Below are positions 4,076-25,967 of a stretch of DNA of 64,000 nucleotides, one piece after another (positions within the stretch are counted from its first letter, which is position 1; each line of letters opens with the position of its first letter). The stretch is from Patescibacteria group bacterium (GTDB taxonomy: Bacteria; Patescibacteriota; Patescibacteriia; Magasanikbacterales; GWA2-37-8): the NCBI GenBank assembly GCA_041651015.1, contig JBAZKA010000002.1, positions 137,269 to 201,268 on the forward strand, written 5' to 3'. Under the pieces are notes generated by a model that ran no database searches, was not told the DNA's origin, and worked only from the letters and a program-made list of their open reading frames with translations. The translations under genes and the position numbers were made by a program.

Positions 4076-4333
4076 ATGTTCAACAAATTCAAACGTCCGG
4101 GAGCGGAGCACCGCTCCCGTGAAACAAATGTGGACAAATTACTCCGTATTTTAGGCGACGAGCGCTGGCACTCCACGTCCGAGCTTGTGGCACGCGTATC
4201 CCATTCGTTCTCGCACTCGAAATTTAGGCTCGTGAAATACGGCTACCCCGTGGAGAAACGAAAACACCCGCACAAATCTCGGCAGTACCAATACCGGCTT
4301 CGCCCCATTCCGGGCGAGCCGGAGTTCGAATGA
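4076..4333 (+). CDS. hypothetical small basic protein
   Basis: 85-aa ORF with ATG start, basic composition, possibly DNA-binding. Confidence 0.35.
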   Translation: MFNKFKRPGAEHRSRETNVDKLLRILGDERWHSTSELVARVSHSFSHSKFRLVKYGYPVEKRKHPHKSRQYQYRLRPIPGEPEFE

Positions 4334-5741: not shown

Positions 5742-5897
5742 ACGGGCATTCACCGACTCTATAACAGTCTCCCTTGTACCATGACACACCTGTGACACTA
5801 ACAATATCTACACAGAAAAAACGCTATAACCTATTTGACAGAATAAAAACCTCTGGCCACGTTTGAGATGCTTCCCAAACAACCATAGGAGGGGGAA

Positions 5898-6215
5898 ATG
5901 GATCCAAGACGAATCAGTCTAGACGTCACGGTCGGCGAATACAACGGTGTCTGCTTGCCCAGCAACGAGGGCTCCACGGGGTATCATTGGATTCTTCCGA
6001 TGATGCCTAACTGCATCAACCGCACGAATGACGAGTGGATGCCAGCGTTCCAGACCTCGCCGGGCTATACTGGCACCCCTGGTGTCCACGTGTTCGTGTT
6101 CCAGGGGATGACGCCCACGCAACAGCCGGCGGAGATGGAATTCTTGCTGGTGCCGCCGGGGCGTGACCAGAAGCCGACGCAGAGAGCCGTCTGCACGGTC
6201 ACCGTGCGCAAGTAG
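5898..6215 (+). CDS. hypothetical protein
   Basis: 105-aa ORF with no recognisable domain. Confidence 0.3.
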   Translation: MDPRRISLDVTVGEYNGVCLPSNEGSTGYHWILPMMPNCINRTNDEWMPAFQTSPGYTGTPGVHVFVFQGMTPTQQPAEMEFLLVPPGRDQKPTQRAVCTVTVRK

Positions 6216-6271
6216 CTCCCGCCCGCGCCGCATCTCAGTTTTTCCACGATAATCATTTTTTAAAAAAAATC

Positions 6272-7558: not shown

Positions 7559-7641
7559 CGCGTTTCAAACGGCATTCCATGCAATGAAGACAAGATAAAA
7601 AATTTCTGTACATTCGATCAGGTCTGCATTATTTTTCGAAA

Positions 7642-8172
7642 ATGGACTGGAGACGACGAAGGCAGATCCGCCAGTTGGCTGATCGTGTGCGAGATGCCCT
7701 CAAGTTGGAAGGCCCCCCTTATGACGTCGAGCTAGCAGTAAAGCTTCTGAACGGCACTATCGTAGCTCCAACTGACTGGCTGACAGAAGCCCTTGTTCGC
7801 AAGAATGGCGAGTCCTTCATCATCGAGGCAACAAAAGCAGCGTCATCGGAACGACAGCGGTTCTCTATAGCTCATGAGTTGGGCCACTTGTTCCTTCACA
7901 TGGGATATCTGGTTGATATAGACACTTGGAACAGCATCAACGAATACCGCGATTCCCCCATGTACCGCAGGGGACATAGCGAAGAAGAATTCGAAGCCAA
8001 CGAGTTTGCCGCCGCCTTCCTCATGCCAGAATCTGACTTCCGAAAAGTGGCCGAAGAACACAAGGTCGGTTGCAGTTACCGAACAACGGACATCGCACAA
8101 AAATTCGGTGTCTCCATGCCAGCCGCCCAAAACCGCGGTAAATGGATAGGCCTTTTCGACTGGAATTCATAA
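7642..8172 (+). CDS. ImmA/IrrE-family zinc metallopeptidase
   Basis: HEXXH motif (AHELGHLFLH) followed by EANEFAAAFLMP, the downstream Glu motif of the ImmA/IrrE (DUF955) fold. Stop abuts the start of the next gene (8172/8173). Confidence 0.7.
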   Translation: MDWRRRRQIRQLADRVRDALKLEGPPYDVELAVKLLNGTIVAPTDWLTEALVRKNGESFIIEATKAASSERQRFSIAHELGHLFLHMGYLVDIDTWNSINEYRDSPMYRRGHSEEEFEANEFAAAFLMPESDFRKVAEEHKVGCSYRTTDIAQKFGVSMPAAQNRGKWIGLFDWNS

Positions 8173-9459
8173 GTGCCGAAAAATATAGAACTCATCCAGC
8201 AAGAATTGGGCTCGGCCCCTGTGGAAACCTCCGACCTGCCTCCTGCCCGCGTGTATCTCTTCATTTCGTTTGACTTAGTGAACTCTACAATTTTCAAACA
8301 GCGTGAAGAGAGTTGGCCCACGGTTCTTGGGACCTTCTACAGAAGAGCCGAGCATGGGATAAACGCTCGGGTCGCAGGCGCAACCGTTTGGAAGTACGCT
8401 GGCGATGAGGTTCTGTTCTGGGTCGCTCCATCATCGGCTGAAGAAATGTGCAAACAACTCGACGGCGCGTATCAGGTGCTGCAAGAGTTAGATCGTGAAA
8501 TGGACACTACCTCTAACCGTCGTCTTCGGGTGAAGGGCACCTGCTGGATAGCTTTAGCCGAGCCAGAAAGTCCAGAGAATTTGCGGAGCCCTGATAGACC
8601 CAAAGCACCCAATCTCATCATCTCCCAACCGCTCGAAGCGAATCCACCGACTCGTGATTTCGTCGGGCCTGATATTGATGCTGGATTCAGACTAGGTGCA
8701 TGCACGTTCAAGTCCACTTTTGCTGTGAGTGCTGAACTAGCGGCGGTTCTTTTAGATAAAGCGCCGATGCCAATCGCTAATAATCTTCATGTTGTCGGGT
8801 ACAAGAAATTGAAAGGTGTATGGAAGGATCGTTTCTACCCCATCGTTTGGTATCGCAAAGAGCTGGATAATGGCTTTGAATATGATGATAAATACGAGAA
8901 CGAAATGCTCGCCAATGGCATTGCAGAGAAGGAAAAAAAAGCAGCCAAGATCGAAGAACTGAAAGACGCTGTCCATAGCATTCGAACCGGATACGTTAAG
9001 CAGCTACTCGATGCCTTTGAACGACCAGCATTGGAAATGTCACCTACGCCGCGTCTGGAAGTACACTGTGCTGCAGCGTGTCGCCGTAGCAATGGCGACG
9101 TTTTGGTCGCCCAGCGCCAAGCAGATAAACGCATCCATCCGGAGAAGTGGGAGTTTGGTTGTGCTCAACTTCGACTCGGAGATACGTTTGAGGAAGCGCT
9201 CGCTCGAGATTACAGGGATGATTTCGGTGCTGAACTCAACTTCCCCGCCGACGCCCATGCACTGGCAACCTACAGTTTTGAACGCGATGGAAGGAAGATT
9301 CCTGGTGTCATTTTACTCGCGATTGTCACAAATCCCGAAGACTGCAAAGCACACAAGCATCAGAATATCCGCTGGATTAACCCCAGCGACCCACCACATG
9401 ATGTGGTCGAGAATGCTGTCCCCGATCTCGTGAAGGCGCTTTCTCGACTTGCGAGTTGA
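8173..9459 (+). CDS. class-III-nucleotidyl-cyclase-like domain fused to NUDIX hydrolase domain
   Basis: N-terminal F-x-D-L-x-x-S-T (FISFDLVNST), K-x-x-GD-x-x-L (WKYAGDEVLF) 44 aa later, and G-x-x-I-D-x-G-F-R-L (GPDIDAGFRL). C-terminal NUDIX-box-like GDTFEEALARDYRDDFGAE. See findings. Confidence 0.5.
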   Translation: MPKNIELIQQELGSAPVETSDLPPARVYLFISFDLVNSTIFKQREESWPTVLGTFYRRAEHGINARVAGATVWKYAGDEVLFWVAPSSAEEMCKQLDGAYQVLQELDREMDTTSNRRLRVKGTCWIALAEPESPENLRSPDRPKAPNLIISQPLEANPPTRDFVGPDIDAGFRLGACTFKSTFAVSAELAAVLLDKAPMPIANNLHVVGYKKLKGVWKDRFYPIVWYRKELDNGFEYDDKYENEMLANGIAEKEKKAAKIEELKDAVHSIRTGYVKQLLDAFERPALEMSPTPRLEVHCAAACRRSNGDVLVAQRQADKRIHPEKWEFGCAQLRLGDTFEEALARDYRDDFGAELNFPADAHALATYSFERDGRKIPGVILLAIVTNPEDCKAHKHQNIRWINPSDPPHDVVENAVPDLVKALSRLAS

Positions 9460-9833
9460 GAGAGACCTGATAGAGACGTCAGAATCTGACTGATCAAGGG
9501 GCTCTACGGCTGTAATTCACGCCTGGGAATGAGTGCGAAACGCAGGCACAGGTCGCTGCCGCGTCAAAATCTTTTTTATAGCCACTTTCTCGGTATTCCA
9601 CAGCGAACGTTTCATGCCTGTGTCCCCGCCCCCTCTAACGTGGCTGGTAACCAATTCCGACCACGGCGCACGTCAGCCTGACCGCTGGCGCGGCGCGCAT
9701 CTCGCCTTCGAGGTCAGTCGATGCGAGGTGCTTAGAGGGGACGGGAGCATTCCCGCCCACCGTTCTTTTCACAACGTTCCTTCCCTGCCTGCCGGCAGGC
9801 AGGCACAACCCCAAACCCAAGGAGACAAAGAAG

Positions 9834-10049
9834 ATGGAAACGCACAGCACCGATCCGGAACGCGAGATCATCGACGGCTTCACCGCCGTCGAGATCAGGA
9901 ACATGGCCTTGGACAGCGTGGTCCAGGCCCGCTGCGACGACTGCGGCGCGATCCACGATGTGGAGCCCGACGCCGAGTCCTACGATTGCGCGAGCTGCGA
10001 CGCCAAGGGCTCGGTGAAGAGCCCGCTCGTCAAGCTCGGCCTCATCTGA
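9834..10049 (+). CDS. hypothetical zinc-ribbon protein
   Basis: aggaga RBS. Two CxxC pairs (CDDCG ... CASCD). Confidence 0.4.
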   Translation: METHSTDPEREIIDGFTAVEIRNMALDSVVQARCDDCGAIHDVEPDAESYDCASCDAKGSVKSPLVKLGLI

Positions 10050-10101
10050 CCGACGCGGACATCACCGCACTTCTACGGAGAAGAGAAAGGAGGAAACGAA
10101 A

Positions 10102-11358
10102 ATGACCGACTGGGTCGACTTCGCCGAGATCCGCGAAAGGGTTTCGCTCGAGCAGGTGCTCCTCGAGTTCTACGGACTCGACAACCTGCGCCGCGACAAC
10201 GCGAAGCTCATCGGGCCGTGCCCGGTGCACCTGGGCGACTCGAAACGAGCCTTTCACGCCGACCTCACGAAAAACGTCTGGCACTGCTTCACCGGCTGCC
10301 ACCGCGGCGGGAACCAGCTCGACCTCGTGGCGCTCAGGGAGGGGATCACCATCCGCGAGGCCGCGCTCAAGCTCAAGGCGTTCTTCCACCTCGACGAACG
10401 CGGCAGCACGGCTCGCTCTCAACAGGGCGCCGCCACCGCTCGCGCATCGCCGAAGGGATCATCTCCCTCTCAGTCATCCACTCCACCCCGTCGCTCCTCA
10501 TCCCGCACAGACACCGCCGCCCGACACGAACATCAGCGTGCATACGCCGAAAGCGATGGCGACGACTGCGATGCCGACGGAGAGGTCATCGCCGACGACG
10601 GCAACACCAACGCCACCGACGGTGCAACCGCGAGCTCAACCGCAGACACTGATCTTCCGATCAACCCGCCGCTCGACGTCGTCCTCAACCTGAAGGGAGA
10701 TCACCCGCATCTCGCAAAGGATCGCGGACTCGCTCCCGAGACGATCGCGCACTTCGGCGTCGGCTACTGCCACCGCGGCATCATGAGGGGTTGCATCGCC
10801 ATTCCGATCCACGACGAGATGAACAACCTCATCGCCTACGCCGGACGGCGCCTCAAGCCCCAGGACATCCGCGAGCTCGGCAAATACAAGCTGCCCAAGG
10901 GCTTCCGCAAGGATCGCGTCCTCTACAACCTCAATCGCGTGAAGGACGCGATGCCCGCCGAAGGCATCGTCCTCGTTGAGGGCTTCTTCACCGTGTTGAA
11001 GCTCCACGAGGCCGGCGTCCAGAATGCGGTCGCGGCCATGGGTTCGGAGCTGTCCGACGCTCAGGCGCAGCTCCTGATCGACACCCCCGGCGTGATCATC
11101 TTGTTCGACGGCGACAACGCCGGACGCCTCGGCGCGATAAACGCGAGAGACAAACTCACCGCGCTCGGCATCACTGTCCGCGTCGCGAATCTGCCCGAGA
11201 ACACGGAGCCGGACGATCTTTCACCCAAGGCGCTGCGCTGGCTCGTGAACGGCATGAAGTTGCTCGACATCGCCGAGGTCGGCTTCTCGTTCCGAGAACC
11301 GCGCGCCGGTGCAAGCGCAGACACCGTCACCGCATCGCCGAAAGAAATGGAGGAATGA
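10102..11358 (+). CDS. DNA primase (CHC2 zinc finger + TOPRIM)
   Basis: CHC2 zinc finger CPVHLGDSKRAFHADLTKNVWHCFTGC. TOPRIM segment VLVEGFFTVLKLHEAGVQNAVAAMGS...ILFDGDNAG. Low-complexity linker in the middle. Confidence 0.75.
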   Translation: MTDWVDFAEIRERVSLEQVLLEFYGLDNLRRDNAKLIGPCPVHLGDSKRAFHADLTKNVWHCFTGCHRGGNQLDLVALREGITIREAALKLKAFFHLDERGSTARSQQGAATARASPKGSSPSQSSTPPRRSSSRTDTAARHEHQRAYAESDGDDCDADGEVIADDGNTNATDGATASSTADTDLPINPPLDVVLNLKGDHPHLAKDRGLAPETIAHFGVGYCHRGIMRGCIAIPIHDEMNNLIAYAGRRLKPQDIRELGKYKLPKGFRKDRVLYNLNRVKDAMPAEGIVLVEGFFTVLKLHEAGVQNAVAAMGSELSDAQAQLLIDTPGVIILFDGDNAGRLGAINARDKLTALGITVRVANLPENTEPDDLSPKALRWLVNGMKLLDIAEVGFSFREPRAGASADTVTASPKEMEE

Positions 11359-11359
11359 A

Positions 11360-11569
11360 ATGCGAGTTCAACTCACGGTCGACATCTCCGCCCGGATGGC
11401 TCGCGCGATTGCCCACCAGTGGGGCTTTGAGCGCCGGGCGACACGCAGCGAAATGGAGGTCTGGTTCGACGGCCACATCACCGCGCTCTGCGAAGTCGTG
11501 ATGCACGAGTACCTCGCGCACCAGCGCGAGGAGCGGAAACGCCGAAGGAGGCTTCGCCATGACGGATAG
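11360..11569 (+). CDS. hypothetical small protein
   Basis: ggagg RBS, ATG at 11360, 69 aa with an Arg-rich tail. Confidence 0.35.
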   Translation: MRVQLTVDISARMARAIAHQWGFERRATRSEMEVWFDGHITALCEVVMHEYLAHQREERKRRRRLRHDG

Positions 11570-11909
11570 CGACTTCGAGATCGTCCACACCTACACCCGT
11601 GAACAGGCGATCGAAGACGGCGTGCTCGTAGAAACGGGCACTGCAATCGTCCCCTCAGTGAAAGGCATTGCCGCGGTATCTGTCTGCATCACCGTGAACT
11701 GCTACGCGACCGCTCATCTTGACGATGATGGGCGCCGCGCAAGAGTCGTCGAGCTCGCTCTCGCCGCGCTCTTCAACAAGCCCGATCGCGAGGACACGCC
11801 CTACATGCGCCTGCGCGTGCTCAAGGAGAATCTGCCCGCCGGCTGCCCGACCATCTGGGCGATCCTCGACGGCGACGGCATCACGGTGATGCTCCCCGAG
11901 GACTACTGA
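11559..11909 (+). CDS. hypothetical protein
   Basis: 116-aa ORF contiguous with neighbouring genes. Confidence 0.4.
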   Translation: MTDSDFEIVHTYTREQAIEDGVLVETGTAIVPSVKGIAAVSVCITVNCYATAHLDDDGRRARVVELALAALFNKPDREDTPYMRLRVLKENLPAGCPTIWAILDGDGITVMLPEDY

Positions 11910-11951
11910 ACCCCGCCGAAGAGATCACCGAACAAAAGAAAGGAAAACCAA

Positions 11952-12608
11952 ATGGCTCGTCATCATCATGGCGGCGAGCGCCGTCAGCTCGCCGACCGGC
12001 TCCTCCTTACAGGAGCCGAGTTCTTGTCCGAGGCCGAGCTTCTCGGCCTCGCCCTGCACCACACCGCGCTCGGTCACGCGCTTGCCTCGCAGACAACAAA
12101 CTGGTCCGAGGCCGATCGCACTCTCATTGGCCGTGTGCCCGGGCTGTCAACGGATCGCCTCGCCTCGCTCTATGCGATGAGTGAACTGGCGAAACGGTTC
12201 GCGGTACGTCCGCTCTATCTCAGTCAGTCCCTCCATTGCAGCGAGGCCGTGGTGAATGTCTATCGGCCCAAGCTCGCCCTGATCAAGCAGGAGGTGTTCG
12301 TGGCGATCTCGCTCAACAACCGGAACTGCGTGGTCGCCGAGCACACCATCGCCAAGGGCTCGCTCGATTCGGTCAACGTCCATCCGCGCGAGGTGTTCCG
12401 TCCGCTCCTGCGCGACGCGGCCGCCCGCGCCATTGCACTGCACAACCACCCGTCCGGAGATCCGACGCCGAGCGAGAACGATATCTCAATGTGCCGCCGC
12501 CTCCACGAGGTCGGCAAGCTCGTCGGCATCCCGCTCCTGGATTTCCTGATCGTGGCCCACGAAGGCTCGGTCTCGTTCCGCGACATCGGGCTCATGCCCG
12601 CGTCGTGA
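11952..12608 (+). CDS. radC: RadC-like JAB/MPN domain protein
   Basis: JAMM motif HNHPSGDPTPSENDI. Confidence 0.8.
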   Translation: MARHHHGGERRQLADRLLLTGAEFLSEAELLGLALHHTALGHALASQTTNWSEADRTLIGRVPGLSTDRLASLYAMSELAKRFAVRPLYLSQSLHCSEAVVNVYRPKLALIKQEVFVAISLNNRNCVVAEHTIAKGSLDSVNVHPREVFRPLLRDAAARAIALHNHPSGDPTPSENDISMCRRLHEVGKLVGIPLLDFLIVAHEGSVSFRDIGLMPAS

Positions 12609-12790
12609 GAGACGAGATCAAATCACAACGCTCTTTTCTCTGCCCGCCAATTCGCTGCGCCGCCATGGCGATAGCGACTTGAGCGGGCAGGCGCTCTTTC
12701 ATCCAAATCACCGCGCTCCTCGGGCTCGCCCAATGACGGCGGGCTCGAGGGCGCCTCTTTCCCGAGAACGGGAAGAAAGGATCTGTCCCC

Positions 12791-13015
12791 ATGCCGAAGA
12801 ACAACAGCAGAAACAGCGAAGAGAAGAAGACGCACCTCAACGTGTTCACGCCCGTGGAGAAGAAGGACTCTAAAACGTTCTGGCTCCGCGTCGGCTCGGC
12901 CTTCACCAACAAGGACGGGAGCATCAACGTGTACCTGGATGCTGTGCCCTTGAACGGCAAGCTCCAGCTCCGCGAGCCGAACCCCAACCCGGATGAGCGC
13001 GACGATGACCGGTGA
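12791..13015 (+). CDS. DUF736-like protein (ICE-associated)
   Basis: FWLRVGSAFTNKDGSINVYLDAVPLNGKLQLRE matches the DUF736 pattern seen in integrative conjugative elements. Confidence 0.5.
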   Translation: MPKNNSRNSEEKKTHLNVFTPVEKKDSKTFWLRVGSAFTNKDGSINVYLDAVPLNGKLQLREPNPNPDERDDDR

Positions 13016-13748
13016 CAAAGAAGAAAACACCGGCCTACCGGACGGTGTGAACACCCCGATCGACGAGCGGATGTCTGTCCGTCTCATTGAAGCACTCACC
13101 GCGGTCTGGTCCAAGATCCGTAAACATCATCCCGATGTTCCCGGTGTCGTCATCCTCGCCGCGCCGTCACTGCGAAAGCAGCTCAACGTCCTCGGCCACT
13201 TCGCCGCGCTCCGCTGGAGCGCGCGAAAGAAGGGTGATCAGCACTTCCACGAGGTCGTGGTTGTGGCCGAGCACCTCGACCGCACAGCCGAGGAGATCGT
13301 CGGAACTATCGTTCACGAGGCCGCACACGCTATGAACTTCGAGCGACAGATCTTCGACTGCTCACGGAGCCAGTACCACAACCAGCGGTTCAAAGACGCT
13401 GCCGAGGAGCTCGGGCTCGAGGTGGACCAGGTACCGCACTACGGCTTCGCGAAGACAAGGATGACCGAGAAGACGATCGCGCTCTACGCGAACGAAATCG
13501 CAGGGCTCAACGACGCCCTCGTCCACCGGAGAAAACCGATCATCATCGCGAAACCCGCGCCGCCAAAGGATGGCACGCGCGACGGACCGGGTGACGAAAA
13601 CGACAACGCCGACGACACGCCCGCCTCGCGTCACCTCAAAGCCGTCTGCTCCTGCGACCCGCCGTTCATTATCCGAGTTTCCAGAAAAACCCTCGCCGAG
13701 ACGCGCATCATCTGCGCGCGATGCGGGGAGGAGTTTGGGGTCGTCTAG
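12993..13748 (+). CDS. SprT-like zinc metallopeptidase with C-terminal zinc ribbon
   Basis: HEAAHAM (HExxH) plus C-terminal CSCDPP...CARCGEEF ribbon. Confidence 0.55.
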   Translation: MSATMTGDKEENTGLPDGVNTPIDERMSVRLIEALTAVWSKIRKHHPDVPGVVILAAPSLRKQLNVLGHFAALRWSARKKGDQHFHEVVVVAEHLDRTAEEIVGTIVHEAAHAMNFERQIFDCSRSQYHNQRFKDAAEELGLEVDQVPHYGFAKTRMTEKTIALYANEIAGLNDALVHRRKPIIIAKPAPPKDGTRDGPGDENDNADDTPASRHLKAVCSCDPPFIIRVSRKTLAETRIICARCGEEFGVV

Positions 13749-13759
13749 TCGTTCTTTGT

Positions 13760-13786
13760 AGCCCGCCAAAAATGGCGGGCTTTGTA
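13760..13786 (+). terminator. hairpin after SprT-like gene, at the boundary of the low-GC islet
   Basis: Stem agcccgcc/ggcgggct with a weak T-run. Confidence 0.4.
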
Positions 13787-13871
13787 TGTCACACCTGTAC
13801 CCCTTGACACTTTTTTATTTTTCATATTTTATTTCTATTCTATTTCGGTTTTTCCAAACAGGAGGTACATT

Positions 13872-16718
13872 TTGTCGTTTGATTTTCAAACAATAGTTTC
13901 CGACATTTTAGAAAAACAATCTCTTGTTAGTTCTCCTTACCACAAAGCTTATCACGCATATATTGTAAATTGGCTAACAAACAGATATAAAGACAAATAT
14001 CCATATGTTACGCTTGTTGGTGTCGGTGGAACCGGTGTAGTTCTCGGCTTCTCTGACACCAGTTCTTCTCCTTTGAAATGTATTAAATACCCTGTTTCTT
14101 CATTTGGCACGACTGGCAATTTTACTCCAGGGCACGTCATCGAAACAGAAGCAAATCGTCTTACACAATTAAGTCATCAGAATATTTTACACGTTGACGA
14201 AGTAGGTAGTGTTCCTGTTGTTGATAATAGTGATGATTTCTCTCTAATCGACAACGAGGGCGAGAAGATCCCTTTCTTTGTAATGCCCTTCATACCCTGT
14301 AAAAATCTTGCTGATTTTCTTAAAGAAGATAGACCTATCGACCAAATCGTTTTGCTTACCATTCTCGCCCAAATTGCGGAAGCACTTGATTACGTACATC
14401 ATCACCATTTAATTCATCTCGATATCAAACCTGAAAACATTTTTGTTGATTTCACTTCTCCTGAGATTATTAACGCCAAACTCGCTGATTTTGGTTCGTG
14501 CAAAGAAATTTCTGTTGGTTCCACTTCCAAATCCATTGTCCTTTGCACAGATGGATATATACATCCAGATCTTTTAAACATTATTAAACAAGGGAACGAT
14601 AGCGATGCAAGACGTTTTCGCAATAAAGTTCCTAAAAGCATTTTTGATTCGAGATTTGATCGCTATTCTTTCGGAGCAACGATTTTGGATTCTGTTTACT
14701 TGTTTCTATCCAACAGTGTAGGAAGATCCGTCTCTCCCTATATGCTTCGTGCACTTCAGTTTATTTCTTTGAAGTGCGCCGATGGTTATGCAAATCACAT
14801 GGCAACACATCCTCGTCGCAAATATCTCGCACCTCCTGATCTTTATAACGATTTACTTTCAAAGAAAGTATCCTATGCTAGCACTACAGAAGTTCTCCGC
14901 GACATTCAAGCCGTTATCTCCAATGGGGATGGTTTCACAGAGCAGGAACTTCTTGATAGTTCCCAGGGAATCGTTTGTTTACCACCACGGTCTTTTGCGC
15001 CGTTCCCAGATAGAGTGCAACAGACTGTCGATTCCACGCCCGTTCGTCGCCTTTCAAGTATTTCACAGTTGGCTCTTGTATATCATGTATATCCAGGCGC
15101 TTCTTACACAAGAAAAGAACATACAATAGGTGTTTTTGCGACAGCCGCAGTTCTTTTGCGCCACATCATTAAAGATAGCAGAAATCCACTCGGCGTGCTA
15201 CTGCTTACACTAAAATGGCAGAGAGCTATACTGTTAAGCTCTCTCTGGCACGATATATCACATATTCCCTTAATGCATGAATTCGAAGATTCGATACCAG
15301 AATTGAGTCAAGGGTACTATTTTGCAAAAATTATGGAAAAGGACTTTGGTTCATTGGCTTTTCAAAAGGAAATTGATACTATTTTGGCTCTATGGAATCT
15401 TACCAGAATTGATGTTGTTTTGGTTCTCGGCAAAAAAAAGAACTTCGATTATCGTAAATGGAATCTTGACGAAGCCCAATGGGATTTTTTATGGGAACTT
15501 CCCGAAAGGCAGCTTTCTGCAAGTATTCTAAACAGTGCTGTTGATGCAGACAAAATGGATTATCTTCAAAGAGACGCTTTACATGTAGGTGTTCAATATG
15601 GTCACACAGTAGATCTTGAGAGGCTTTTCCGCAGAGCAACAGTCGCACTTACAGTGAATACAAATAAAAGGGATGGAACCACGATTACTTCCTTTAAATG
15701 CAGTTTAGGCTTCTGGAGTACAGGTGCAGCAGCTGCAGAAGCTGTAATTGAAGCACGACACAACATGTTCAATCAGGTTTATGCACATAGAACAGTTCGT
15801 GCTTCCAGGGCTATGCTGAATTATATTGCATGGAATTGGCGTTGTAGTATTGAGGAAGGAAAGACATATCGCCCTAATAGTTTGTTTGTAAGAGGTAGCT
15901 CTTTGTGCCCTAGCGGAAGCATCCTATCGCAGATGAGAAAACAGACTCAAAAGCAAATGCAAATGGATGAAATTGGTTCCACTGCCTTTGCTGAAAATAG
16001 AACACTGAATGTTTCCGAAAAACGTTTTGAAGATAAGCTGCGTGATAATTTGCCATATTTGGAATCGTCACTGATAAGATGGTTGGCGGCGCAATCCGGG
16101 AAAGACGAAGCGGTATTAATGGCCGAGTCGTTGATACAAAGAGAATTGTATAAGGAATTATTTGTAATAAAAATTGCGAAAGTTCAACAGTTGTTTGATG
16201 CAATATACTCAACAAAAAAGGACACCGAGAATGAATCAAAGTATGAAATGAACTTTCGGTGCAATAATTGGTTAGGGCTTATTGATTTCATAGAAGCAAA
16301 ACTTAAGGAATACATACAAAATGAAGAAAAAAACAAAAGCGTGGCTATATCAATGGAGCAACTAGAGAAATCGAAGTTGCCTTGTTTATTGGTTGATTTT
16401 GCGTTGCCTAAAACAATGCGTGGGCAACCTATACTATACCTGGTGAGCGAAGAAATGAGATCTGGTGTTGGTTGGGAAAAAGTTAGAAAACAAAATCCAA
16501 GCGGTGGAAAAGAAACTTTATCTGGCATGATCGTTGAGAAGTCGAGAATTTATGAGTTGTTCGGGGGAGGGGTATCGGAAAGCAAGTGGTTAACACCTGT
16601 GATTAGAGTATTCGCGTCGAAAGAGATAGCAAATGTATTACGCAGACATCTTCACGAAGAAACAGTAATCGAATGGCTAAATAGATATTTACAGGATGGA
16701 AGAGCTGTCGTGGAATAA
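13872..16718 (+). CDS. Hanks-type Ser/Thr protein kinase fused to dGTPase/SAMHD1-like HD domain
   Basis: Kinase motifs GVGGTGVV (Gly loop), HLDIKPENIF (catalytic loop), KLADFGS (DFG). C-terminal HD motifs H...LWHDISH and VDADKMDYLQRDALHVGV (dGTPase/SAMHD1 signature). aggagg RBS then TTG at 13872. The ORF is open from 13782. GC is ~38% inside a 65% GC region. Confidence 0.6.
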   Translation: MSFDFQTIVSDILEKQSLVSSPYHKAYHAYIVNWLTNRYKDKYPYVTLVGVGGTGVVLGFSDTSSSPLKCIKYPVSSFGTTGNFTPGHVIETEANRLTQLSHQNILHVDEVGSVPVVDNSDDFSLIDNEGEKIPFFVMPFIPCKNLADFLKEDRPIDQIVLLTILAQIAEALDYVHHHHLIHLDIKPENIFVDFTSPEIINAKLADFGSCKEISVGSTSKSIVLCTDGYIHPDLLNIIKQGNDSDARRFRNKVPKSIFDSRFDRYSFGATILDSVYLFLSNSVGRSVSPYMLRALQFISLKCADGYANHMATHPRRKYLAPPDLYNDLLSKKVSYASTTEVLRDIQAVISNGDGFTEQELLDSSQGIVCLPPRSFAPFPDRVQQTVDSTPVRRLSSISQLALVYHVYPGASYTRKEHTIGVFATAAVLLRHIIKDSRNPLGVLLLTLKWQRAILLSSLWHDISHIPLMHEFEDSIPELSQGYYFAKIMEKDFGSLAFQKEIDTILALWNLTRIDVVLVLGKKKNFDYRKWNLDEAQWDFLWELPERQLSASILNSAVDADKMDYLQRDALHVGVQYGHTVDLERLFRRATVALTVNTNKRDGTTITSFKCSLGFWSTGAAAAEAVIEARHNMFNQVYAHRTVRASRAMLNYIAWNWRCSIEEGKTYRPNSLFVRGSSLCPSGSILSQMRKQTQKQMQMDEIGSTAFAENRTLNVSEKRFEDKLRDNLPYLESSLIRWLAAQSGKDEAVLMAESLIQRELYKELFVIKIAKVQQLFDAIYSTKKDTENESKYEMNFRCNNWLGLIDFIEAKLKEYIQNEEKNKSVAISMEQLEKSKLPCLLVDFALPKTMRGQPILYLVSEEMRSGVGWEKVRKQNPSGGKETLSGMIVEKSRIYELFGGGVSESKWLTPVIRVFASKEIANVLRRHLHEETVIEWLNRYLQDGRAVVE

Positions 16719-16721
16719 AAA

Positions 16722-16748
16722 ATCCCCAAGAAAACAAACTTGGGGAGA
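16722..16748. terminator. bidirectional hairpin between convergent genes
   Basis: Hairpin ccccaag-aaaacaaa-cttgggg flanked by A/T runs. Confidence 0.5.
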
Positions 16749-16769
16749 AAGAATTCGATGCCTTTGATT

Positions 16770-17510
16770 TCAAGAATCGATCGGATTCAAACCAAGAAGA
16801 AAGAATCCAACATTATCGTCTCTGTTTCCGTCCCATACATTGCAACGAAGACCTGATTTCTCAAAAGTAATTGTCACTACTCGGCCACGTGAGTATTTAT
16901 CGTCGGTGGATACACTTAAAAGAGAGTCGGGCGCTCGACAGCCGGTTTCTCTAAAATGGGAGAAAACGAGAGGGACAATAACCGAAATAGAACCTAAAGA
17001 AAGGCAATGGACTTCTGGAAGACCGTTGAGTTCGCGTAAGATCCGTAAATAGTCATTCTGTTCTGCAAACGAACGACTAGTACTCGATTTAGCAACGACT
17101 GGAATCCAGAAAGCAATTGCTGGCAAAGATAACTCTTTACATTGATGTAGAGCTTCCTTATTTAAAAGAACTCGACCGCCACAAAAGGGGCCTGTTTTAC
17201 TGCCGTTTTCAAACAGACTGAATCCCTTGCGTAAATGCCAACAACAAGGGCCGTTGTAATCCACAGATCTTGAGTAACTTCTCCAGGCTGATACGGTTGA
17301 GGAAGGCTCACAGCAAGCATTTCTGTGAAGAAATGTTACTGCTTCCTCATCTGTAAGTGGAGTGGCGAAGGTATATTTCTTTTCTTCTGAAAGAATATTC
17401 CCTATCATGGATTTCAATAGCACTCCATTGTTGATTATAAAACGACGTTCGTCCACGTTCAAAGAGAGAAACAAATTGGAGATTTCCAAGAATGACACGT
17501 CTTTCGGCAT
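16770..17510 (-). CDS. hypothetical protein (Cys/His-rich)
   Basis: 246-aa low-GC ORF convergent with the kinase-HD gene. CCEPS...CCWH motifs. No recognised domain. Confidence 0.45.
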   Translation of the reverse strand: MPKDVSFLEISNLFLSLNVDERRFIINNGVLLKSMIGNILSEEKKYTFATPLTDEEAVTFLHRNACCEPSSTVSAWRSYSRSVDYNGPCCWHLRKGFSLFENGSKTGPFCGGRVLLNKEALHQCKELSLPAIAFWIPVVAKSSTSRSFAEQNDYLRILRELNGLPEVHCLSLGSISVIVPLVFSHFRETGCRAPDSLLSVSTDDKYSRGRVVTITFEKSGLRCNVWDGNRDDNVGFFLLGLNPIDS

Positions 17511-17979
17511 GACACGCTCCTTGTAAATGTACAGACAGTAAAATTTTACTGTCGGAAGGTGCGAATCGTCGCGTCCTCCACTATTTCGTCCAGTTGATAA
17601 ATAAAAGCAGTCTTAAAATACGACTTGATTGTTGAACTTCATAGTGGAAGACATGAACTGAGACACATTAAGTGTATCACAAACAAGGAACATATGTCAA
17701 ATACAATACATGGTCACCCTGATGTCAAGCATTGGGGCTTGGCGCGATTTAGTCAAGACCCAACTACAATACCAGACAGCGCTATCGAAAAGACCATAGG
17801 GCACTTGAAAATATAAAAGATTAAAACTGCTTGCTGTTATAAAAATAGCTTTATCCATCTATATTACAATATTACCGTCCTGAGATGCACCGCAAGAAGC
17901 TTGCGAATGCTCAATAATATGAAAAGCGATTTTGTCTTTTTACAAAACAGGTATCGCATCATTGAGAATATGAAGGTTT

Positions 17980-18031
17980 AGCACTGGCAACTCCGCGGTG
18001 CGAGGCCCATGGGGTCCAGTTGCCAGTGCTG
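17980..18031. repeat. 13-bp inverted repeat hairpin at low-GC/high-GC junction
   Basis: Arms agcactggcaact and agttgccagtgct separated by 25 nt, followed by cttttat. Confidence 0.5.
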
Positions 18032-18057
18032 AGCTTTTATAAAAAGTGCTCTCGGGA

Positions 18058-18687
18058 TCACTCGCTCTTCGCCGCTGGTTCCCCTTCGGGTGGTGCCGCC
18101 AGAACGTTCACGTTCACCTCCACTTCGGTCAGCGCGGAATTGTAGGCCGCGTCTTTCGCGCGGATCACGAGTCGGTACTTGCCGGGCGAGAGCCCCTTGG
18201 GCACCGGGAAATCCAGCTCCTCGCGTTTGGAATCCAGGGCGCCATCCTTGACTCTGAGCGTGGTCCAGGTCTTACCGGCGTCGCCGGATACTTGGATGAG
18301 CGTGATGTTGGAAAGCGCGTCTTCAACCGCGCCGGTCACGCGTCCTTCCGCCTCTTTGAGGTCAATGAAGCGCGGCGGCGCGGTGTCCTGTTGCTGGGCG
18401 AGCGCCCCTATATCCCCGTTGGCCGCAGATACGCTTGAGGTAGACACAGCAGCTTCATCCAGTATCTCGGCCTCGGAGCAGACCGCGGTCGGCGAATTGC
18501 CCGAATCCGGATTCGGGCAGTAGAAAACCTGCGTCTGCACGGGCAGGCCGAAAAGCGTGGTGGTCTTCACATACCAGGCCTCACCGGTCGCGTCCTTGAC
18601 CGAGGGCATGGACGAGGTGACGGACGTGCAGCCGGTGGTCAGGGCGATGAGCGCGATCGTCGCGATAGAAAGATTTTTCTTTTTCAT
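18058..18687 (-). CDS. lipoprotein
   Basis: Signal peptide with lipobox MKKKNLSIATIALIALTTGC. The M15 start is inside a longer ORF. Confidence 0.55.
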   Translation of the reverse strand: MKKKNLSIATIALIALTTGCTSVTSSMPSVKDATGEAWYVKTTTLFGLPVQTQVFYCPNPDSGNSPTAVCSEAEILDEAAVSTSSVSAANGDIGALAQQQDTAPPRFIDLKEAEGRVTGAVEDALSNITLIQVSGDAGKTWTTLRVKDGALDSKREELDFPVPKGLSPGKYRLVIRAKDAAYNSALTEVEVNVNVLAAPPEGEPAAKSE

Positions 18688-18698
18688 GGTCACCTCCA

Positions 18699-18926
18699 TC
18701 ACCGCGTCACTTCGGCGACGGGCCGGCACTTGGGCTTGCCGTCGGTTGCGCGGCAGAACAGCATGTCCGTGCCGAAGTAGCTCCCCTTGACCACATAGGC
18801 ATGATTCTCGGACGACACCACGGCCGTCCGTGCCACGCAGCCCGAGGTGATCGCGCCGAGCGCGAGAAGCAGAACGAAAATGATCGCCGCCGGCTTGGCC
18901 GAGCGGTGCTTTTTGTTGTTCTTCAT
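18699..18926 (-). CDS. small lipoprotein
   Basis: Signal peptide with lipobox LLLALGAITSGC. Confidence 0.45.
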   Translation of the reverse strand: MKNNKKHRSAKPAAIIFVLLLALGAITSGCVARTAVVSSENHAYVVKGSYFGTDMLFCRATDGKPKCRPVAEVTR

Positions 18927-19069
18927 TATAACTTTACCTTTTCTTCAGGTTATCTTTGCCGCCCGCGCCTCAGCGCTCACGGCATCTCCAGTTTCCATCT
19001 CGAAAGGCGCTCTCCCGCCGCCGATGCCGGAACCATCCATGGGCATCGGCGGCAGGAGTCGTCATTCCG

Positions 19070-22402
<3,333 letters not shown>

Positions 22403-22579
22403 CTTCTCTTCCTCCCCGAGCCGCGCCTCAGGCGCACGAGCGTTCACGGTGTTTCCGCACGGCCCGCTGTTGTCCCATCTCTCAAGGCGCACTCCCGCCG
22501 CCGATGCCGGGACCATCCAGGGGCACCGGCGGACGGGACGTGCGAGGACCCCCGCGTTCAAAGCGGCCGATGCCGCCGA

Positions 22580-23134
22580 CTACTCGTGACTTGGTTCGCT
22601 CTGTTCGCTGCCGGCTGCCGCCGAGTCGTCTTTCAACGGAACGGCGACAGGATCTGGGGCCGCTTTCTCGACTGAATCGGCCCAGATGTAGCGGAACATG
22701 GGGACTTCCATTCCAGCCCCTTTGCAGTATTCTGAAGTGACGTAGCCCTTTACGATTATGCGATCGCCGTCGGATAGGCTTTCGATCGACGAGTATTTGT
22801 CTTTGCCGATTTCAAGGAAGACGCTTTGCGCTCCTCCATCCGCAGCAGTTTTCCCTGGTTCGTGAAGCCCGCTGAAAATGGAGTCGGGGCAATACTGTTG
22901 CTCAATGGCAGCACGCTGGCCTCCATATGAGGCCTCAACCTCCACCCACTTGCCTTTGGGCTGCAAGGCTTGGATGGTCTTCAACGACATCTTCTCGTAG
23001 GTCTTGGGGCCGGGAGCAGCGGCGTATTCATTGCTGCCGCCGCCGCTCTCCGAGTAGATGAGGCTCCCGCATCCGGCGACGGTCATAGCAAGAACCCCCA
23101 GCGCGACCATGGACAACCAGACTGACTTCTTCAT
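22580..23134 (-). CDS. lipoprotein
   Basis: MKKSVWLSMVALGVLAMTVAGC lipobox. Internal start at M75 of the ORF. Confidence 0.5.
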   Translation of the reverse strand: MKKSVWLSMVALGVLAMTVAGCGSLIYSESGGGSNEYAAAPGPKTYEKMSLKTIQALQPKGKWVEVEASYGGQRAAIEQQYCPDSIFSGLHEPGKTAADGGAQSVFLEIGKDKYSSIESLSDGDRIIVKGYVTSEYCKGAGMEVPMFRYIWADSVEKAAPDPVAVPLKDDSAAAGSEQSEPSHE

Positions 23135-23421
23135 CCTCTCTCCTCCGTCTGTGCCCTTTAAAAAGAAAAGGGCGAATGAGTCGGCCTCTCGCGAGAACTC
23201 ACCCGCCCAATCCGCACAAACGAAGGTAATCACTCCTCCGCTGCCACGGTGGCGCAAGGATACGAGAGGCCTTTGTCTTGAGCTGGCAGTCAACGCGATC
23301 CGTCGCGGGTGATTAATCCGCCTAGCCCTTGCGGGCCGGATCGAGTCTTCTTTCAACTCACGACCATTATGGTGGCGATGGGGAAGAGAAGCAATAGGGA
23401 AAAAGAGAAAACCCGCGCGGA

Positions 23422-23664
23422 TTAAGGCGCAACGCGATTGAGCGTGTGCACGCCGAGAGGTAGATCGTTGCGATCAACGATCACGACGTCGGAGATATTT
23501 TTCGTCCAGGTGGCGGCGACATTCTGTGCTTCTTCTTTGTCGTCGTAGCTACCGATGACGACCGCGCCGGGCACGTAGACGGCGTATCTCCCGGACTCGG
23601 TTTTGTTGGGAGAGCGCGCGATGGCACTCTCTACCTCGTAGATCTGGGCGATCCTGTTGGTCAT
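23422..23664 (-). CDS. hypothetical protein
   Basis: 80-aa ORF. Confidence 0.3.
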   Translation of the reverse strand: MTNRIAQIYEVESAIARSPNKTESGRYAVYVPGAVVIGSYDDKEEAQNVAATWTKNISDVVIVDRNDLPLGVHTLNRVAP

Positions 23665-23849
23665 GCGAGCCTCATGTAAGTCGGTTGACGGAACATACCA
23701 TAGCTGTAATCGACCGCCTTCCTATAATTCTGAAAAATTGCAACAAGGACGTTACGGGCTCGGTTTCTCGCAGTTCCCACGGTCATGACCGTTGCGCGGG
23801 CCTCAACCGGGATCCATGGTAGTCACGTTCGCGTCAGTCGGAGGGCACC

Positions 23850-24206
23850 ATGGCCGAGAAGAAATCAGCGGTGCTGTGCCAGAGTTGTGGCATGGCGATG
23901 TATGATGCGGAGAACTTTGGTACCGATGCCCAGGGCAACCGGGTGAGTGATTACTGCCGGGACTGCTTCCGGAATGGAGGCTTCGTAGAGCCGGAGCTGA
24001 CCATGGAGGTCATGATCCAACGGCTTTCCGAAGGCATGTTCCGGTCGGAACAAGAACCGTCGATTAGAGACTCCATCGTTAATTTTATCGGCAGCCTCGA
24101 GCGGTGGCACGGAGAGCTTTGGACCCCTCCGCCATCGACTATTTCGGTCGTTGAAGACAACGAGGAAACGCCCGGAGGCTTGAGCTCGTCGTTCAGCCCA
24201 AGGTAG
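23850..24206 (+). CDS. hypothetical zinc-ribbon protein
   Basis: CQSCG...CRDCF motif. Confidence 0.4.
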   Translation: MAEKKSAVLCQSCGMAMYDAENFGTDAQGNRVSDYCRDCFRNGGFVEPELTMEVMIQRLSEGMFRSEQEPSIRDSIVNFIGSLERWHGELWTPPPSTISVVEDNEETPGGLSSSFSPR

Positions 24207-24440
24207 AGCCGCCGAACAAGAAAGAGAATGCCCCTCAAGGCGAACGCCTTCCTGATTTGTCTGTCTGCACCCGCCGATCTGTCTTTCGATTCTTTGCCGC
24301 GGAAAGGCAGTGGAGCTTGTTGTCTATACGATTCCGTCCATCGGGTTGACCGCGTTGAGCGGGATCTCGCGCACGACGTGCTCGACCGGGAGTTCTGGGG
24401 ATGACTCAGCCAAAGCTGCTATTGCAGTGTTGGACACATT

Positions 24441-24782
24441 GTGATAATCTACTTATTAGACGCTAAGTCTGTATTAATTAATGACATAACAATACTTATG
24501 GAAATACACGATCGATTTTCTGAGAATCCCGATGGGATTGATGTGGTTGGTTGTAATTCTTACTCAGATTACCAAGAACTCGCGGAGAAACTTGACAAGG
24601 AAGGATATGTTTTTGCACATAATATGCTAAAATCAGATGCAAAGCAATGGTTTGACAATAGTGGCATAAAGAAAGATAATGATGTGGTTTTTACAAGCGC
24701 CTTCTCTCGTCCGAATGAGATAAAATTGTACGGTGAGCCCGTGAAGGGCTACGTTGGAATTTGGTGCAGACAGGGTAAATAA
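24441..24782 (+). CDS. hypothetical protein (low GC)
   Basis: 113-aa ORF convergent with the cyclase-CSD gene. Confidence 0.35.
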   Translation: MIIYLLDAKSVLINDITILMEIHDRFSENPDGIDVVGCNSYSDYQELAEKLDKEGYVFAHNMLKSDAKQWFDNSGIKKDNDVVFTSAFSRPNEIKLYGEPVKGYVGIWCRQGK

Positions 24783-24821
24783 AACGAAGGATCAATCAGA
24801 GTATTTATTTGGCGATAGTAA

Positions 24822-25967
24822 TCATTGGATCTTTATCGGATAGTAACCAGCGGGACCTTTTTCATTTTTATCGATAGTAAAGTCGATGGTCATTCCACGT
24901 GACCACGCGATGGATTCGTCGAGTAGAATGAAGAATTTTTTGGTCCCCCCATCCTTCGTTTCACAAGATGCAAATCCGTAACCTTTTATAACTGTATCCA
25001 ATCTCCCTCTTAGAACTTCTCCAAATCTAATCACATAAGTAGCACGCCGACTTTTTCCTTTCGCAAGAGAAAGTGCAGGTATAAACCAGACTTCTTGGTC
25101 TACCTCTATTCCTAGTCCATTCTGAAACAAACAGTCTGGATTAAACCAGAAATCTTCATCTCCGGGGCCTGAGATGAAACCATAAGTATCTTTTAAGGAA
25201 GAAATGCGTCCCATTATCCACTCGATGTTTTCAGATTGATTTTCCCTGGGACTGATTTTAATCGATTCATCGTTTTGTTTCGATGGTGTATTGGCCAACA
25301 CAATGGTCTGGCCAAGACTCGTTTTTGTAATATAGGGTGTGCTGACTCCATATCTTTGGGCCGCCCACATTATTTCGTAATATCCAATAGGACGGGAGAA
25401 ACCTTTCGCTGTGACAAATTCCTCGTTGCCTTGGTAGTCGGAAACTTTTCGTTTAGGAGACACGTTTCTTCCGAGCCGGGATGAAATTCTATTCATCGCG
25501 GCAGCGGCTACTGTATCATTGTCGACAAAAACAGCGTTAGATTTTGCTGCACTGCAAAGACGAAAAGCCCTATCAGCTACTGTGCCTATATAGTCCTTGC
25601 TTCCTTCGGTTACATCAAATTCGATTACTTCACCATAAGACACACCAACCGAACAACTGCATGAAATCTGGTTTTGCTCCCTGGCAACTGCCATGGATTC
25701 CTGAATAAATATTGACCAGTTGATAGCTTCCGCCACATGATCCTCGGAAAAGACTGACATAGCACCATCACCAAGAAACTTTACTATTGTGCCTTTGTAC
25801 TCTTTGATGCTATTAAAAAGCAAATCGAAAAACCATGCATATTGTGTGAGCCATGTTGCTTCCGACTGTTGCTCTTTCATGCTCGTGGAATCGGTAAGAT
25901 CAACAGCGACTATTGTTTTCATAACTCTTGAATTTGGATCGCGAAAAGTTTCATGTAATGATGTCAT
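24822..25967 (-). CDS. class-III-nucleotidyl-cyclase-like domain fused to two cold-shock (CSD/OB) domains
   Basis: Cyclase-like VAVDLTDST, KFLGDGAM and GTVADRAFRL. Two CspA-like modules: DTYGFISGPGDEDFWFNPDCL...GIEVDQEVWF and IKGYGFASCETKDGGTKKFFILLDESI...TIDFTIDKNEKGPAG. GC ~40%. Confidence 0.55.
   Translation of the reverse strand: MTSLHETFRDPNSRVMKTIVAVDLTDSTSMKEQQSEATWLTQYAWFFDLLFNSIKEYKGTIVKFLGDGAMSVFSEDHVAEAINWSIFIQESMAVAREQNQISCSCSVGVSYGEVIEFDVTEGSKDYIGTVADRAFRLCSAAKSNAVFVDNDTVAAAAMNRISSRLGRNVSPKRKVSDYQGNEEFVTAKGFSRPIGYYEIMWAAQRYGVSTPYITKTSLGQTIVLANTPSKQNDESIKISPRENQSENIEWIMGRISSLKDTYGFISGPGDEDFWFNPDCLFQNGLGIEVDQEVWFIPALSLAKGKSRRATYVIRFGEVLRGRLDTVIKGYGFASCETKDGGTKKFFILLDESIAWSRGMTIDFTIDKNEKGPAGYYPIKIQ

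Follow-up and report, generated by a model that had tools for sequence, protein, structure and literature searches.

The DNA analysed here is a stretch of 64,000 nucleotides (hereafter, the window) from contig JBAZKA010000002.1 of an assembly assigned to a Patescibacteria group bacterium (GCA_041651015.1), and two of its genes, which we call gene A and gene B, encode proteins with a domain resembling class III nucleotide cyclases. We propose, at a probability of roughly 0.6, that both belong to one divergent class III cyclase lineage in which the transition-state Asn of canonical enzymes has become fixed as Asp (within Asp-x-(Gly/Ala)-Phe-Arg), and that they are most likely active and make a cyclic mononucleotide signal within mobile-element or defence modules. 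Gene A and its homologues (family A) join the cyclase domain to a Nudix-fold domain and form the core of a widespread, large, and unannotated Pycsar-like module of protease and cyclase; gene B and its homologues (family B) join it to two cold-shock domains.

Fold and position of the variant aspartate

Both genes are intact open reading frames (ORFs), with GTG as the start codon of gene A. Their cyclase domains and the residues considered below are as follows (pLDDT, predicted local distance difference test).

8173..9459, + strand: gene A, 428 amino acids, N-terminal Asp-variant class III cyclase-like domain and C-terminal Nudix-fold domain (AlphaFold pLDDT 85)
8245..8868, + strand: cyclase-homology domain of gene A, residues 25-232, from conservation, AlphaFold, and Foldseek
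8272-8274, + strand: metal Asp34 of gene A
8392-8394, + strand: Lys74 of gene A, base-recognition position
8404-8406, + strand: metal Asp78 of gene A
8656-8658, + strand: Asp162 of gene A, base-recognition position
8659..8697, + strand: motif FVGPDIDAGFRLG of gene A, residues 163-175, in register with family B
8677-8679, + strand: Asp169 of gene A, at the transition-state Asn position
8689-8691, + strand: Arg173 of gene A
24822..25967, - strand: gene B, 381 amino acids, Asp-variant class III cyclase domain followed by two cold-shock domains (AlphaFold pLDDT 88)
25353..25925, - strand: cyclase domain of gene B, residues 15-205
25899-25901, - strand: metal Asp23 of gene B
25779-25781, - strand: Lys63 of gene B
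25767-25769, - strand: metal Asp67 of gene B
25593-25595, - strand: Asp125 of gene B
25554..25592, - strand: motif YIGTVADRAFRLC of gene B, residues 126-138, aligned to the Asn/Arg of Cya2
25572-25574, - strand: Asp132 of gene B, at the Asn position
25560-25562, - strand: Arg136 of gene B

The motifs read SFDLVNST (residues 32-39), WKYAGDE (residues 73-79), and FVGPDIDAGFRLG (residues 163-175) in gene A, and AVDLTDST (residues 21-28), VKFLGDG (residues 62-68), and YIGTVADRAFRLC (residues 126-138) in gene B. An earlier, sequence-only reading of this DNA held that Asp replaces Asn in both proteins, and the alignments and models now bear this out, with no offset of the motifs that would place the Asn elsewhere. 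First, phmmer aligned IGTVADRAFRL of gene B with VGAQVNLTYRI of the guanylyl cyclase Cya2 (PDB 2w01), setting Asp on Asn and Arg on Arg. Second, genes A and B align with each other only weakly by BLASTP (E = 0.011), yet with all three motifs in register, and the same register was recovered by hhalign from alignments of 24 homologues each (93.7% probability, E = 1.9e-7). Third, in the AlphaFold models built on the same alignments, the strand bearing the conserved Asp-x-x-Gly leads into a helix whose first turn holds the variant Asp in both proteins, and the start of this helix is where the aligned canonical Asn and Arg fall.

These models also support a predicted cyclase-homology (palm-like) fold for both genes. 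Class III cyclases came first when the models were compared with the PDB by Foldseek (E = 5e-9 for gene A and 2.5e-12 for gene B, with TM-scores of up to 0.82-0.89 on the target), and the C-terminal half of gene A matched MutT-type Nudix proteins. At the sequence level, gene B fell below the gathering threshold of the Pfam model Guanylate_cyc (PF00211; 19.8 vs 21.9 bits), and a precomputed match to this model is present in several of its homologues. The cyclase domain of gene A had no PF00211 match at E<=1 and no match to a PADLOC cyclase model, the protein being hit only by a marginal C-terminal NUDIX domain in Pfam and by a Nudix-type candidate model in PADLOC. Since a profile of the family A N-terminal domain likewise found no cyclase among PDB sequences (the best match, at E = 0.035, was a calcium-channel fragment), the cyclase fold of family A is seen only through structure and profile-profile comparison. 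An identity as an mCpol or GGDEF domain is not supported, with no GGDEF or Cas10 entry among the best 50 Foldseek matches listed per model and DgcZ (E = 0.37) as the sole GGDEF sequence match.

Conservation of the active site

Conservation was assessed in 238 informative sequences of family A and 54 of family B. The family A set combined sequences of the first homology search with 150 representatives taken from a library-wide profile search and with those of 54 genome loci. The counts were as follows.

Variant Asp: family A D169, 238/238; family B D132, 54/54
Arg: family A R173, 238/238; family B R136, 53/54
Gly/Phe before Arg: family A G171 and F172, 238/238; family B F135, 46/54
Metal Asp 1: family A D34, 238/238; family B D23, 50/51
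Metal Asp 2: family A D78, 238/239; family B D67, 52/54
Lys before Gly-Asp: family A Lys or Arg, 238/240; family B K63, 53/54
Acidic residue seven before the variant Asp: family A Asp or Glu, 236/238; family B D125, 54/54

At five of the six classical catalytic positions the residues are canonical, an adenylyl-cyclase-type Lys/Asp pair among them, and the sixth is fixed as Asp. Because this Asp and the other catalytic positions are invariant or nearly so, both domains are constrained and probably catalytically active, which agrees with the earlier suggestion that they are not random degenerate cyclase relics. The Lys/Asp pair further suggests ATP as the substrate.

Relationship between the two families

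How distinctive the shared motif is differs from one residue to the next. The Ser of the metal strand, which the sequence-only reading had counted as a shared deviation, proved ordinary, as Asn-type bacterial cyclases commonly read GST or DST there. A Phe ahead of the Arg is likewise seen in relatives whose Asn site holds His or Gln, and Asp forms are not alone in having the Phe-Arg-Leu-Cys-Ser context. The Asn site itself varies (N, A, H, Q) among the nearest outside relatives of gene B, retrieved with a domain-only gene B profile: SnoaL-cyclase fusions read DYIGTTVNKAARI with Asn, two of them having Ala, and DUF4242-cyclase fusions read ATV(H/Q)LAFRLCS. Active cyclases without the Asn have been described, namely Rv1900c (His) and a DUF2652 protein (Ile) (PMC4886424). 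PycC, the cyclase of Pycsar systems, carries Asn followed four residues on by Lys or Arg where it is linked to the anti-phage membrane effector family PycTM (as read in cyclases from plasmids and one genome locus), and the Asp is therefore no general Pycsar trait.

The relationship between the two families was more evident from whole domains. A profile of the family A N-terminal domain scored family B proteins at 20-35 bits vs 7-12 bits for PycC, and the gene A profile was compared by hhalign with six groups, using equally small alignments, both intact and with the 13-14-residue motif block removed from both sides.

B with cold-shock domains: 94.4%; motif masked, 92.5%
Short B-type: 95.5%; motif masked, 94.7%
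SnoaL-cyclase: 0.7%; motif masked, 0.5%
DUF4242-cyclase: 0.3%; motif masked, 0.5%
Small Asn-type cyclases: 11.6%; motif masked, 17.8%
PycC: 48.5%; motif masked, 51.8%

As the gene A profile matches the B-type groups only, motif masked or not, the placement of genes A and B in one Asp-variant lineage is supported at the level of sequence profiles, and so is the earlier claim of one distinct subfamily (94-95% vs 0.3-48% for the canonical groups). The affinity persists with the motif masked, so that an artefact of the common motif was rejected. The profile of gene B itself matched all canonical groups at 98-99.7%, and gene B looks like a modestly derived canonical cyclase, with gene A a strongly diverged offshoot that has the B type as its only clear relative.

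It is unlikely, in our assessment, that the common Asp is convergent and that A and B, without being related, branched from different cyclase clades and were brought together in the window by coincidence. Such an origin would fit the variability of the Asn position in this region of the cyclase family (N, A, H, Q, D), the 15 kb that separate the two genes, their opposite strands, the differing guanine-cytosine (GC) content of the regions around them, their lack of co-occurrence in the other loci examined, and the closeness of gene B to canonical cyclases (Ma1120, E = 1e-11) that gene A does not match; it is opposed by the preference of the family A profile for B-type proteins over PycC and by hhalign probabilities that single out the B groups and are unchanged with the motif masked.

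The family A module

Directly upstream of gene A lies a peptidase gene whose stop codon abuts the gene A start.

7642..8172, + strand: M78 (ImmA/IrrE/CapP-like) zinc metallopeptidase, 176 amino acids, HELGH motif (Pfam Peptidase_M78, E = 1.6e-18)

Its best PADLOC match is CapP (1.2e-27), of whose profile positions 3-149 of 242 are covered. The peptidase sequence offers no Cys for a cysteine switch, and no helix-turn-helix (HTH) repressor gene was found beside the pair of M78 and cyclase-Nudix genes in the window or in the annotated loci examined. Because the peptidase is short, lacks Cys, and has no HTH gene alongside, the cyclase-Nudix protein is its obvious candidate partner or substrate, as judged from adjacency only.

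This arrangement is widespread. In six independent metagenome or genome contexts of gene A homologues, an M78 gene of ~175 amino acids was located directly upstream, and a gene for PycTM (PF18967) was adjacent in four. We then scanned one genome per species, which gave 54 loci, called neighbours with locally built hidden Markov models, and found M78 directly upstream of family A in 51 of them and PycTM adjacent in 27, with about five loci reaching a contig edge before the downstream flank was visible. The loci represent Proteobacteria, Verrucomicrobia, Myxococcota, Spirochaetes, Fibrobacterota, Ignavibacteria, Campylobacterota, Melainabacteria, Mycoplasmatota, and many Firmicutes; those linked to PycTM are mostly from Firmicutes and Melainabacteria, going by the organism names in the records. 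Neighbours at the loci lacking PycTM are unrelated to one another (HD, nucleoside deoxyribosyltransferase, UvrC, polyphosphate kinase, GGDEF, and DUF2079 proteins). Cultured temperate phages carry the module as well: in Clostridioides phage phiCD27, orf38 encodes M78, orf37 a family A protein of 528 amino acids, and orf36 PycTM, all between the integrase and the lysis cassette, and the same cyclase-Nudix gene is present in phiC2, CDKM9, phiCDHM19, and phiCD508. In the library-wide profile search (clusters at 50% identity), family A numbers 2131 cluster representatives at E<=1e-3 and, at the stricter E<=1e-10, 1767. Genome records label its members "NUDIX hydrolase" or "hypothetical", and in PHROGs the cyclase part belongs to two families without an assigned function.

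The sequence-only reading had seen neither cyclase gene accompanied by a recognisable receptor or effector and had left the readout of any signal open. This stands for the window insofar as no PycTM or other effector gene was found there, but the reading had missed the M78 gene that abuts gene A, the Nudix-fold fusion in gene A, and the two cold-shock domains fused in gene B, and with PycTM beside half of the relatives of gene A, a readout is no longer wholly lacking for family A. Nor was a gene for any small membrane protein found downstream of gene A in the window, the 190-amino-acid ORF at 9533-10105 looking like a high-GC frame artefact.

The M78 and cyclase-Nudix pair could instead be a switch of the mobile element itself, controlling induction or transfer in the manner of ImmA/ImmR, or a counter-defence device, with the cyclic nucleotide or the Nudix-like domain serving the element rather than a host-protective abortive infection; we consider this quite unlikely. 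Compatible with such a role are the location of the pair in temperate phages and prophages, within their lysogeny or moron regions, its position in the window between coupling-protein-like and primase genes of a conjugative-element-like region, the classical control of element induction by ImmA-type peptidases (10.64898/2026.05.16.725639), and the half of the loci that lack PycTM. On the other side, the peptidase is without a neighbouring HTH repressor gene at the loci examined, the 27 loci with adjacent PycTM point to a logic of killing by an effector, and many of the loci without PycTM lie among ordinary chromosomal genes such as those for UvrC and polyphosphate kinase.

Extra peptidase or cyclase genes occur at several loci. 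Tandem M78 genes precede the cyclase-Nudix gene at L001 (4694-5996), L022 (3629-4939), and L031 (1559-2751), the extra copy being ~220-232 amino acids long. At L031, from a Verrucomicrobiia metagenome-assembled genome, a canonical PycC (4223-5540; PADLOC PDLC02368 at 3e-87, Asn position not cleanly aligned) lies immediately downstream of an M78 and cyclase-Nudix pair without PycTM, adjoined by a 200-amino-acid ORF that has three hydrophobic segments; cyclase modules of both kinds can thus be direct neighbours. On the archaeal Haloterrigena plasmid pHTS138 (L018, 2174-4444), two cyclase genes are found beside one PycTM gene, and one of them reads IDLVDSTRLRE....W, resembling the metal strand of A and B, but retains the Asn (ETINLASKIE).

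The Nudix-fold domain of gene A

The second domain of gene A passes the Pfam cut-off narrowly.

9055..9456, + strand: Nudix-fold domain of gene A, residues 295-428 (Pfam NUDIX, 21.6 bits vs a cut-off of 21.1)

By Foldseek it matches MutT and BdRppH (E about 5e-8), with a sequence match to BdRppH at E = 1e-7. Across family A the Nudix box (GX5EX7REUXEEXGU) is degenerate, with replacements usual at the Arg, at the first Glu, and at one of the two paired Glu residues. The box of gene A reads G-D-x7-R-D-Y-R-D-D-F-G, and this copy is unusual in keeping the Arg and having Asp at all four Glu positions (A-x5-D-x7-R-D-Y-R-D-D-F-G), which leaves its own catalytic status ambiguous. Two other residues, His298 and Cys330 (in the motif W-E-F-G-C), are invariant in family A and align with the His of "tplH" and the Cys of C-G-H-P in the Salmonella type 1 isopentenyl-diphosphate isomerase (IDI; PDB 3hyq, E = 0.0035), which we take to be the counterparts of two E. 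coli IDI residues, His25 (a metal ligand) and Cys67 (catalytic). No equivalents of the remaining IDI ligands were found in this domain, and the two residues hint at a Cys/His-based site rather than a pyrophosphohydrolase. For family A as a whole, a canonical pyrophosphohydrolase role appears unlikely and a ligand-binding or sensor role more plausible.

Some family A members have no detectable Nudix-fold domain (loci L034, L063, and L070; representatives such as P0110 and P0112, 255-330 amino acids), being either shorter proteins or divergent at the C-terminus, and at loci L042 and L066 the cyclase and Nudix parts are on separate ORFs (split or frameshift).

Gene B and its surroundings

The C-terminal part of gene B contains a pair of cold-shock domains.

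24831..25226, - strand: two cold-shock (OB-fold) domains of gene B, residues 248-300 and 305-379, with the RNP-type aromatics Phe264 and Phe273

The corresponding region of family B matched CspB, CspD, and Unr in the PDB by profile, twice per protein, with G263, F264, and F273 as invariant columns, and the AlphaFold model of gene B has beta-barrels at residues 251-297 and 307-379. This architecture of a cyclase followed by two cold-shock domains is kept in gene B homologues, and the cold-shock domains are a probable nucleic-acid sensor.

In six other contexts, the homologue is a stand-alone gene without a conserved neighbour, and in five of the six it adjoins toxin-antitoxin, restriction, recombinase, or other defence-like genes. 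Neighbours over the six contexts include a SIR2/AAA_15 pair, GmrSD with a HEPN protein, MazEF, HicAB, methyltransferase-helicase genes, a resolvase, and transposase genes. Genes for M78, PycTM, or family A were not found near gene B and its homologues in the loci examined, and gene B had no match in the phage database. Within the window, gene B occupies a low-GC stretch (0.44) between flanks of 0.6 GC. The most fitting interpretation of gene B is that of a self-contained sensor-cyclase belonging to mobile or defence-type regions. A minority of family B proteins lack a metal Asp and the Arg (e.g., P0107, which reads VAQVADAA and VDRALAL), and their residues mark them as likely inactive derivatives.

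Predicted activity and mechanism

Mechanistically, we envisage gene A as the core of a two- or three-gene module consisting of the M78 peptidase, the cyclase-Nudix protein, and, in about half of the genomes, PycTM. A trigger such as infection or DNA damage would act through the peptidase, which, having no HTH repressor partner, may cut or bind the cyclase-Nudix protein, and the Nudix-like domain may serve as a ligand sensor. The cyclase would then turn on, and its product would open PycTM, leading to cell arrest or death; the copy in the window, carried in a conjugative-element-like region, has no PycTM. For gene B, the probable role of the cold-shock domains is to gate the cyclase and to bind single-stranded nucleic acid. 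Taken further, and only tentatively, the M78 peptidase, the Asp-variant cyclase with its pseudo-Nudix domain, and the optional PycTM might constitute a previously unrecognised and widespread class of cyclic-nucleotide defence, in which the protease couples infection or DNA damage to signal synthesis, the Asp brings an altered product or catalytic step (for example, by contacting the ribose differently, acting as a general base, or binding a third metal), and the cold-shock cyclase is a sister single-protein sensor-cyclase. The least secure point of this proposal is that the Asp would alter how the ribose or transition state is held, because the Asn site tolerates several residues in relatives.

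Several considerations weigh against the proposed signalling role. The window copy of gene A has no PycTM or other effector gene within 64 kb, and the loci without PycTM share no consistent third gene, so that the module may act there other than by Pycsar-type signalling. The Asp may not alter the chemistry at all, as relatives of gene B tolerate N, A, H, and Q at this site. The relation between A and B stands at the profile level (about 94%) rather than as a resolved phylogeny. For the protease-gating step, the evidence is adjacency and the absent HTH partner. A substrate is not reliably read from two residues, and PycC also keeps the Lys. Enzyme activity and phage protection are predictions for both families. 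The least probable of the alternatives, and an improbable one, is that both domains are dead pseudo-cyclases acting as nucleotide binders or scaffolds with the Asp as a sign of decay: both miss the PF00211 threshold, inactive cyclic nucleoside monophosphate (cNMP) cyclase domains are known in conflict systems (PMC7159879), and a few family B members such as P0107 lack catalytic residues, but across hundreds of sequences with an overall identity of roughly 25-50%, conservation reaches 98-100% at the metal Asp pair, at the Lys, at the Asp in position -7, and at the variant Asp and the Arg, as in an active site under selection, and the link with PycTM, a signal-dependent effector, argues for a product.

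Comparison with known systems

Among known systems, Pycsar with its recently surveyed relatives shares the most with the proposed Asp-variant lineage. Both have an enzyme of class III cyclase fold and occur in prophage or defence-island settings, family A adjoins the same effector family in 27 of 54 genome loci (PF18967, PADLOC PycTM models), and gene B and its homologues match PADLOC PycC models weakly (1e-9 to 1e-12, compared with 3e-87 for the true PycC at L031). In contrast to the Asn-x3-Lys/Arg of PycTM-linked PycC, however, families A and B carry Asp-x3-Arg; PADLOC PycC models gave no match to family A; the family A cyclase is joined to a Nudix-fold domain and has an M78 peptidase as its partner, the window copy being without an effector; and the Lys/Asp pair of A and B would suggest a purine rather than a pyrimidine substrate. 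Neither PycTM nor PycTIR was found next to gene A or B in the window, and PycTM was never next to family B in the loci examined.

With canonical class III cyclases (Ma1120, Cya2, CyaC, CyaB, and Rv1900c), both families share the fold, the two-metal Asp pair, and the Arg, and with adenylyl cyclases the Lys and Asp at the base-recognition positions; the match to Ma1120 noted above was obtained with the family B profile. They differ in having Asp for the ribose-contacting, transition-state Asn and in being fused to Nudix-fold or cold-shock domains, not the usual sensory domains, and gene A differs further in being undetectable by sequence against PDB cyclases.

The upstream gene resembles CapP/CapH, ImmA/ImmR, and IrrE/DdrO in encoding an M78 HExxH metallopeptidase, with CapP as the best match, and in heading a defence or mobile-element operon. 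CapP, ImmA, and IrrE cleave an HTH repressor once activated, CapP being a DNA-damage-activated peptidase that responds to single-stranded DNA (10.64898/2026.05.16.725639). The M78 protein of the window has 176 amino acids vs about 288 for E. coli CapP, in which HTH and GAF parts follow the peptidase domain, and it has neither an adjacent HTH repressor gene nor a Cys; its usual partner is a cyclase-Nudix protein. The C-terminal domain of gene A shares its fold with Nudix hydrolases (MutT, RppH) and type 1 IDI but, across family A, has mostly lost the Arg-Glu and Glu-Glu positions of the Nudix box. Finally, the C-terminal domains of gene B weakly match the PADLOC model CSD_V and the NCBIfam retron Se72 effector, as in type V retrons, although these matches are below threshold, the context includes no retron reverse transcriptase or non-coding RNA, and the domains are fused to a cyclase.

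A 2026 survey of immune cNMP cyclases describes Pycsar-1 to -4 and Pucsar with their fusions and neighbours in its section 5, and its main text makes no mention of a Nudix fusion, an M78 peptidase, or a cold-shock fusion (10.64898/2026.08.12.744502). No description of the M78 and cyclase-Nudix module was found in the literature searched, and an earlier mention in comparative-genomics work of 2015 is possible. That 2015 paper ("nucleotide-centric systems") reportedly was the first to predict systems of this kind.

Because family A is overlooked as a cyclase by PF00211 and by the PADLOC PycC models, many PycTM genes look like orphan effectors, and recognising the family A cyclase gives these genes a signal generator. 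It also adds two parts that are new to Pycsar-type signalling, namely an ImmA/CapP-like protease and a degenerate Nudix-fold domain. The C. difficile temperate phages phiCD27 and phiC2 and Bacillus prophages offer tractable test systems, and the invariant Asn-to-Asp change is a clean single-residue probe of ribose positioning and transition-state stabilisation in class III cyclases.

Other genes in the window

The window is a GC mosaic (0.40-0.64). Gene A and its M78 gene are embedded in a run of genes (4476-13748) typical of conjugative or mobilisable elements.

4476-5741: Replic_Relax protein, conjugative/mobilisable-element type
6272-7558: TrwB-like coupling ATPase, conjugative/mobilisable-element type
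10102-11358: DnaG-type primase, conjugative/mobilisable-element type
11952-12608: RadC, conjugative/mobilisable-element type
12993-13748: SprT-like protein, conjugative/mobilisable-element type

A GC content of ~60%, together with large Ig-like and conjugation-type genes, seems unusual for Patescibacteria, and the bin assignment may be wrong. The Ig-like gene (19070-22561, - strand) encodes a 1163-amino-acid protein with Big_13 bacterial Ig-like domains and MopE-type metal-binding repeats, and the gene listed downstream of it (22580-23356, - strand) has no Pfam match. At 13782-16718, in a sharply low-GC segment (0.40), lies a gene for a protein of 978 amino acids that begins with a Ser/Thr protein kinase domain at its N-terminus and also has a weak HD-associated region; this may be another horizontally acquired conflict gene.

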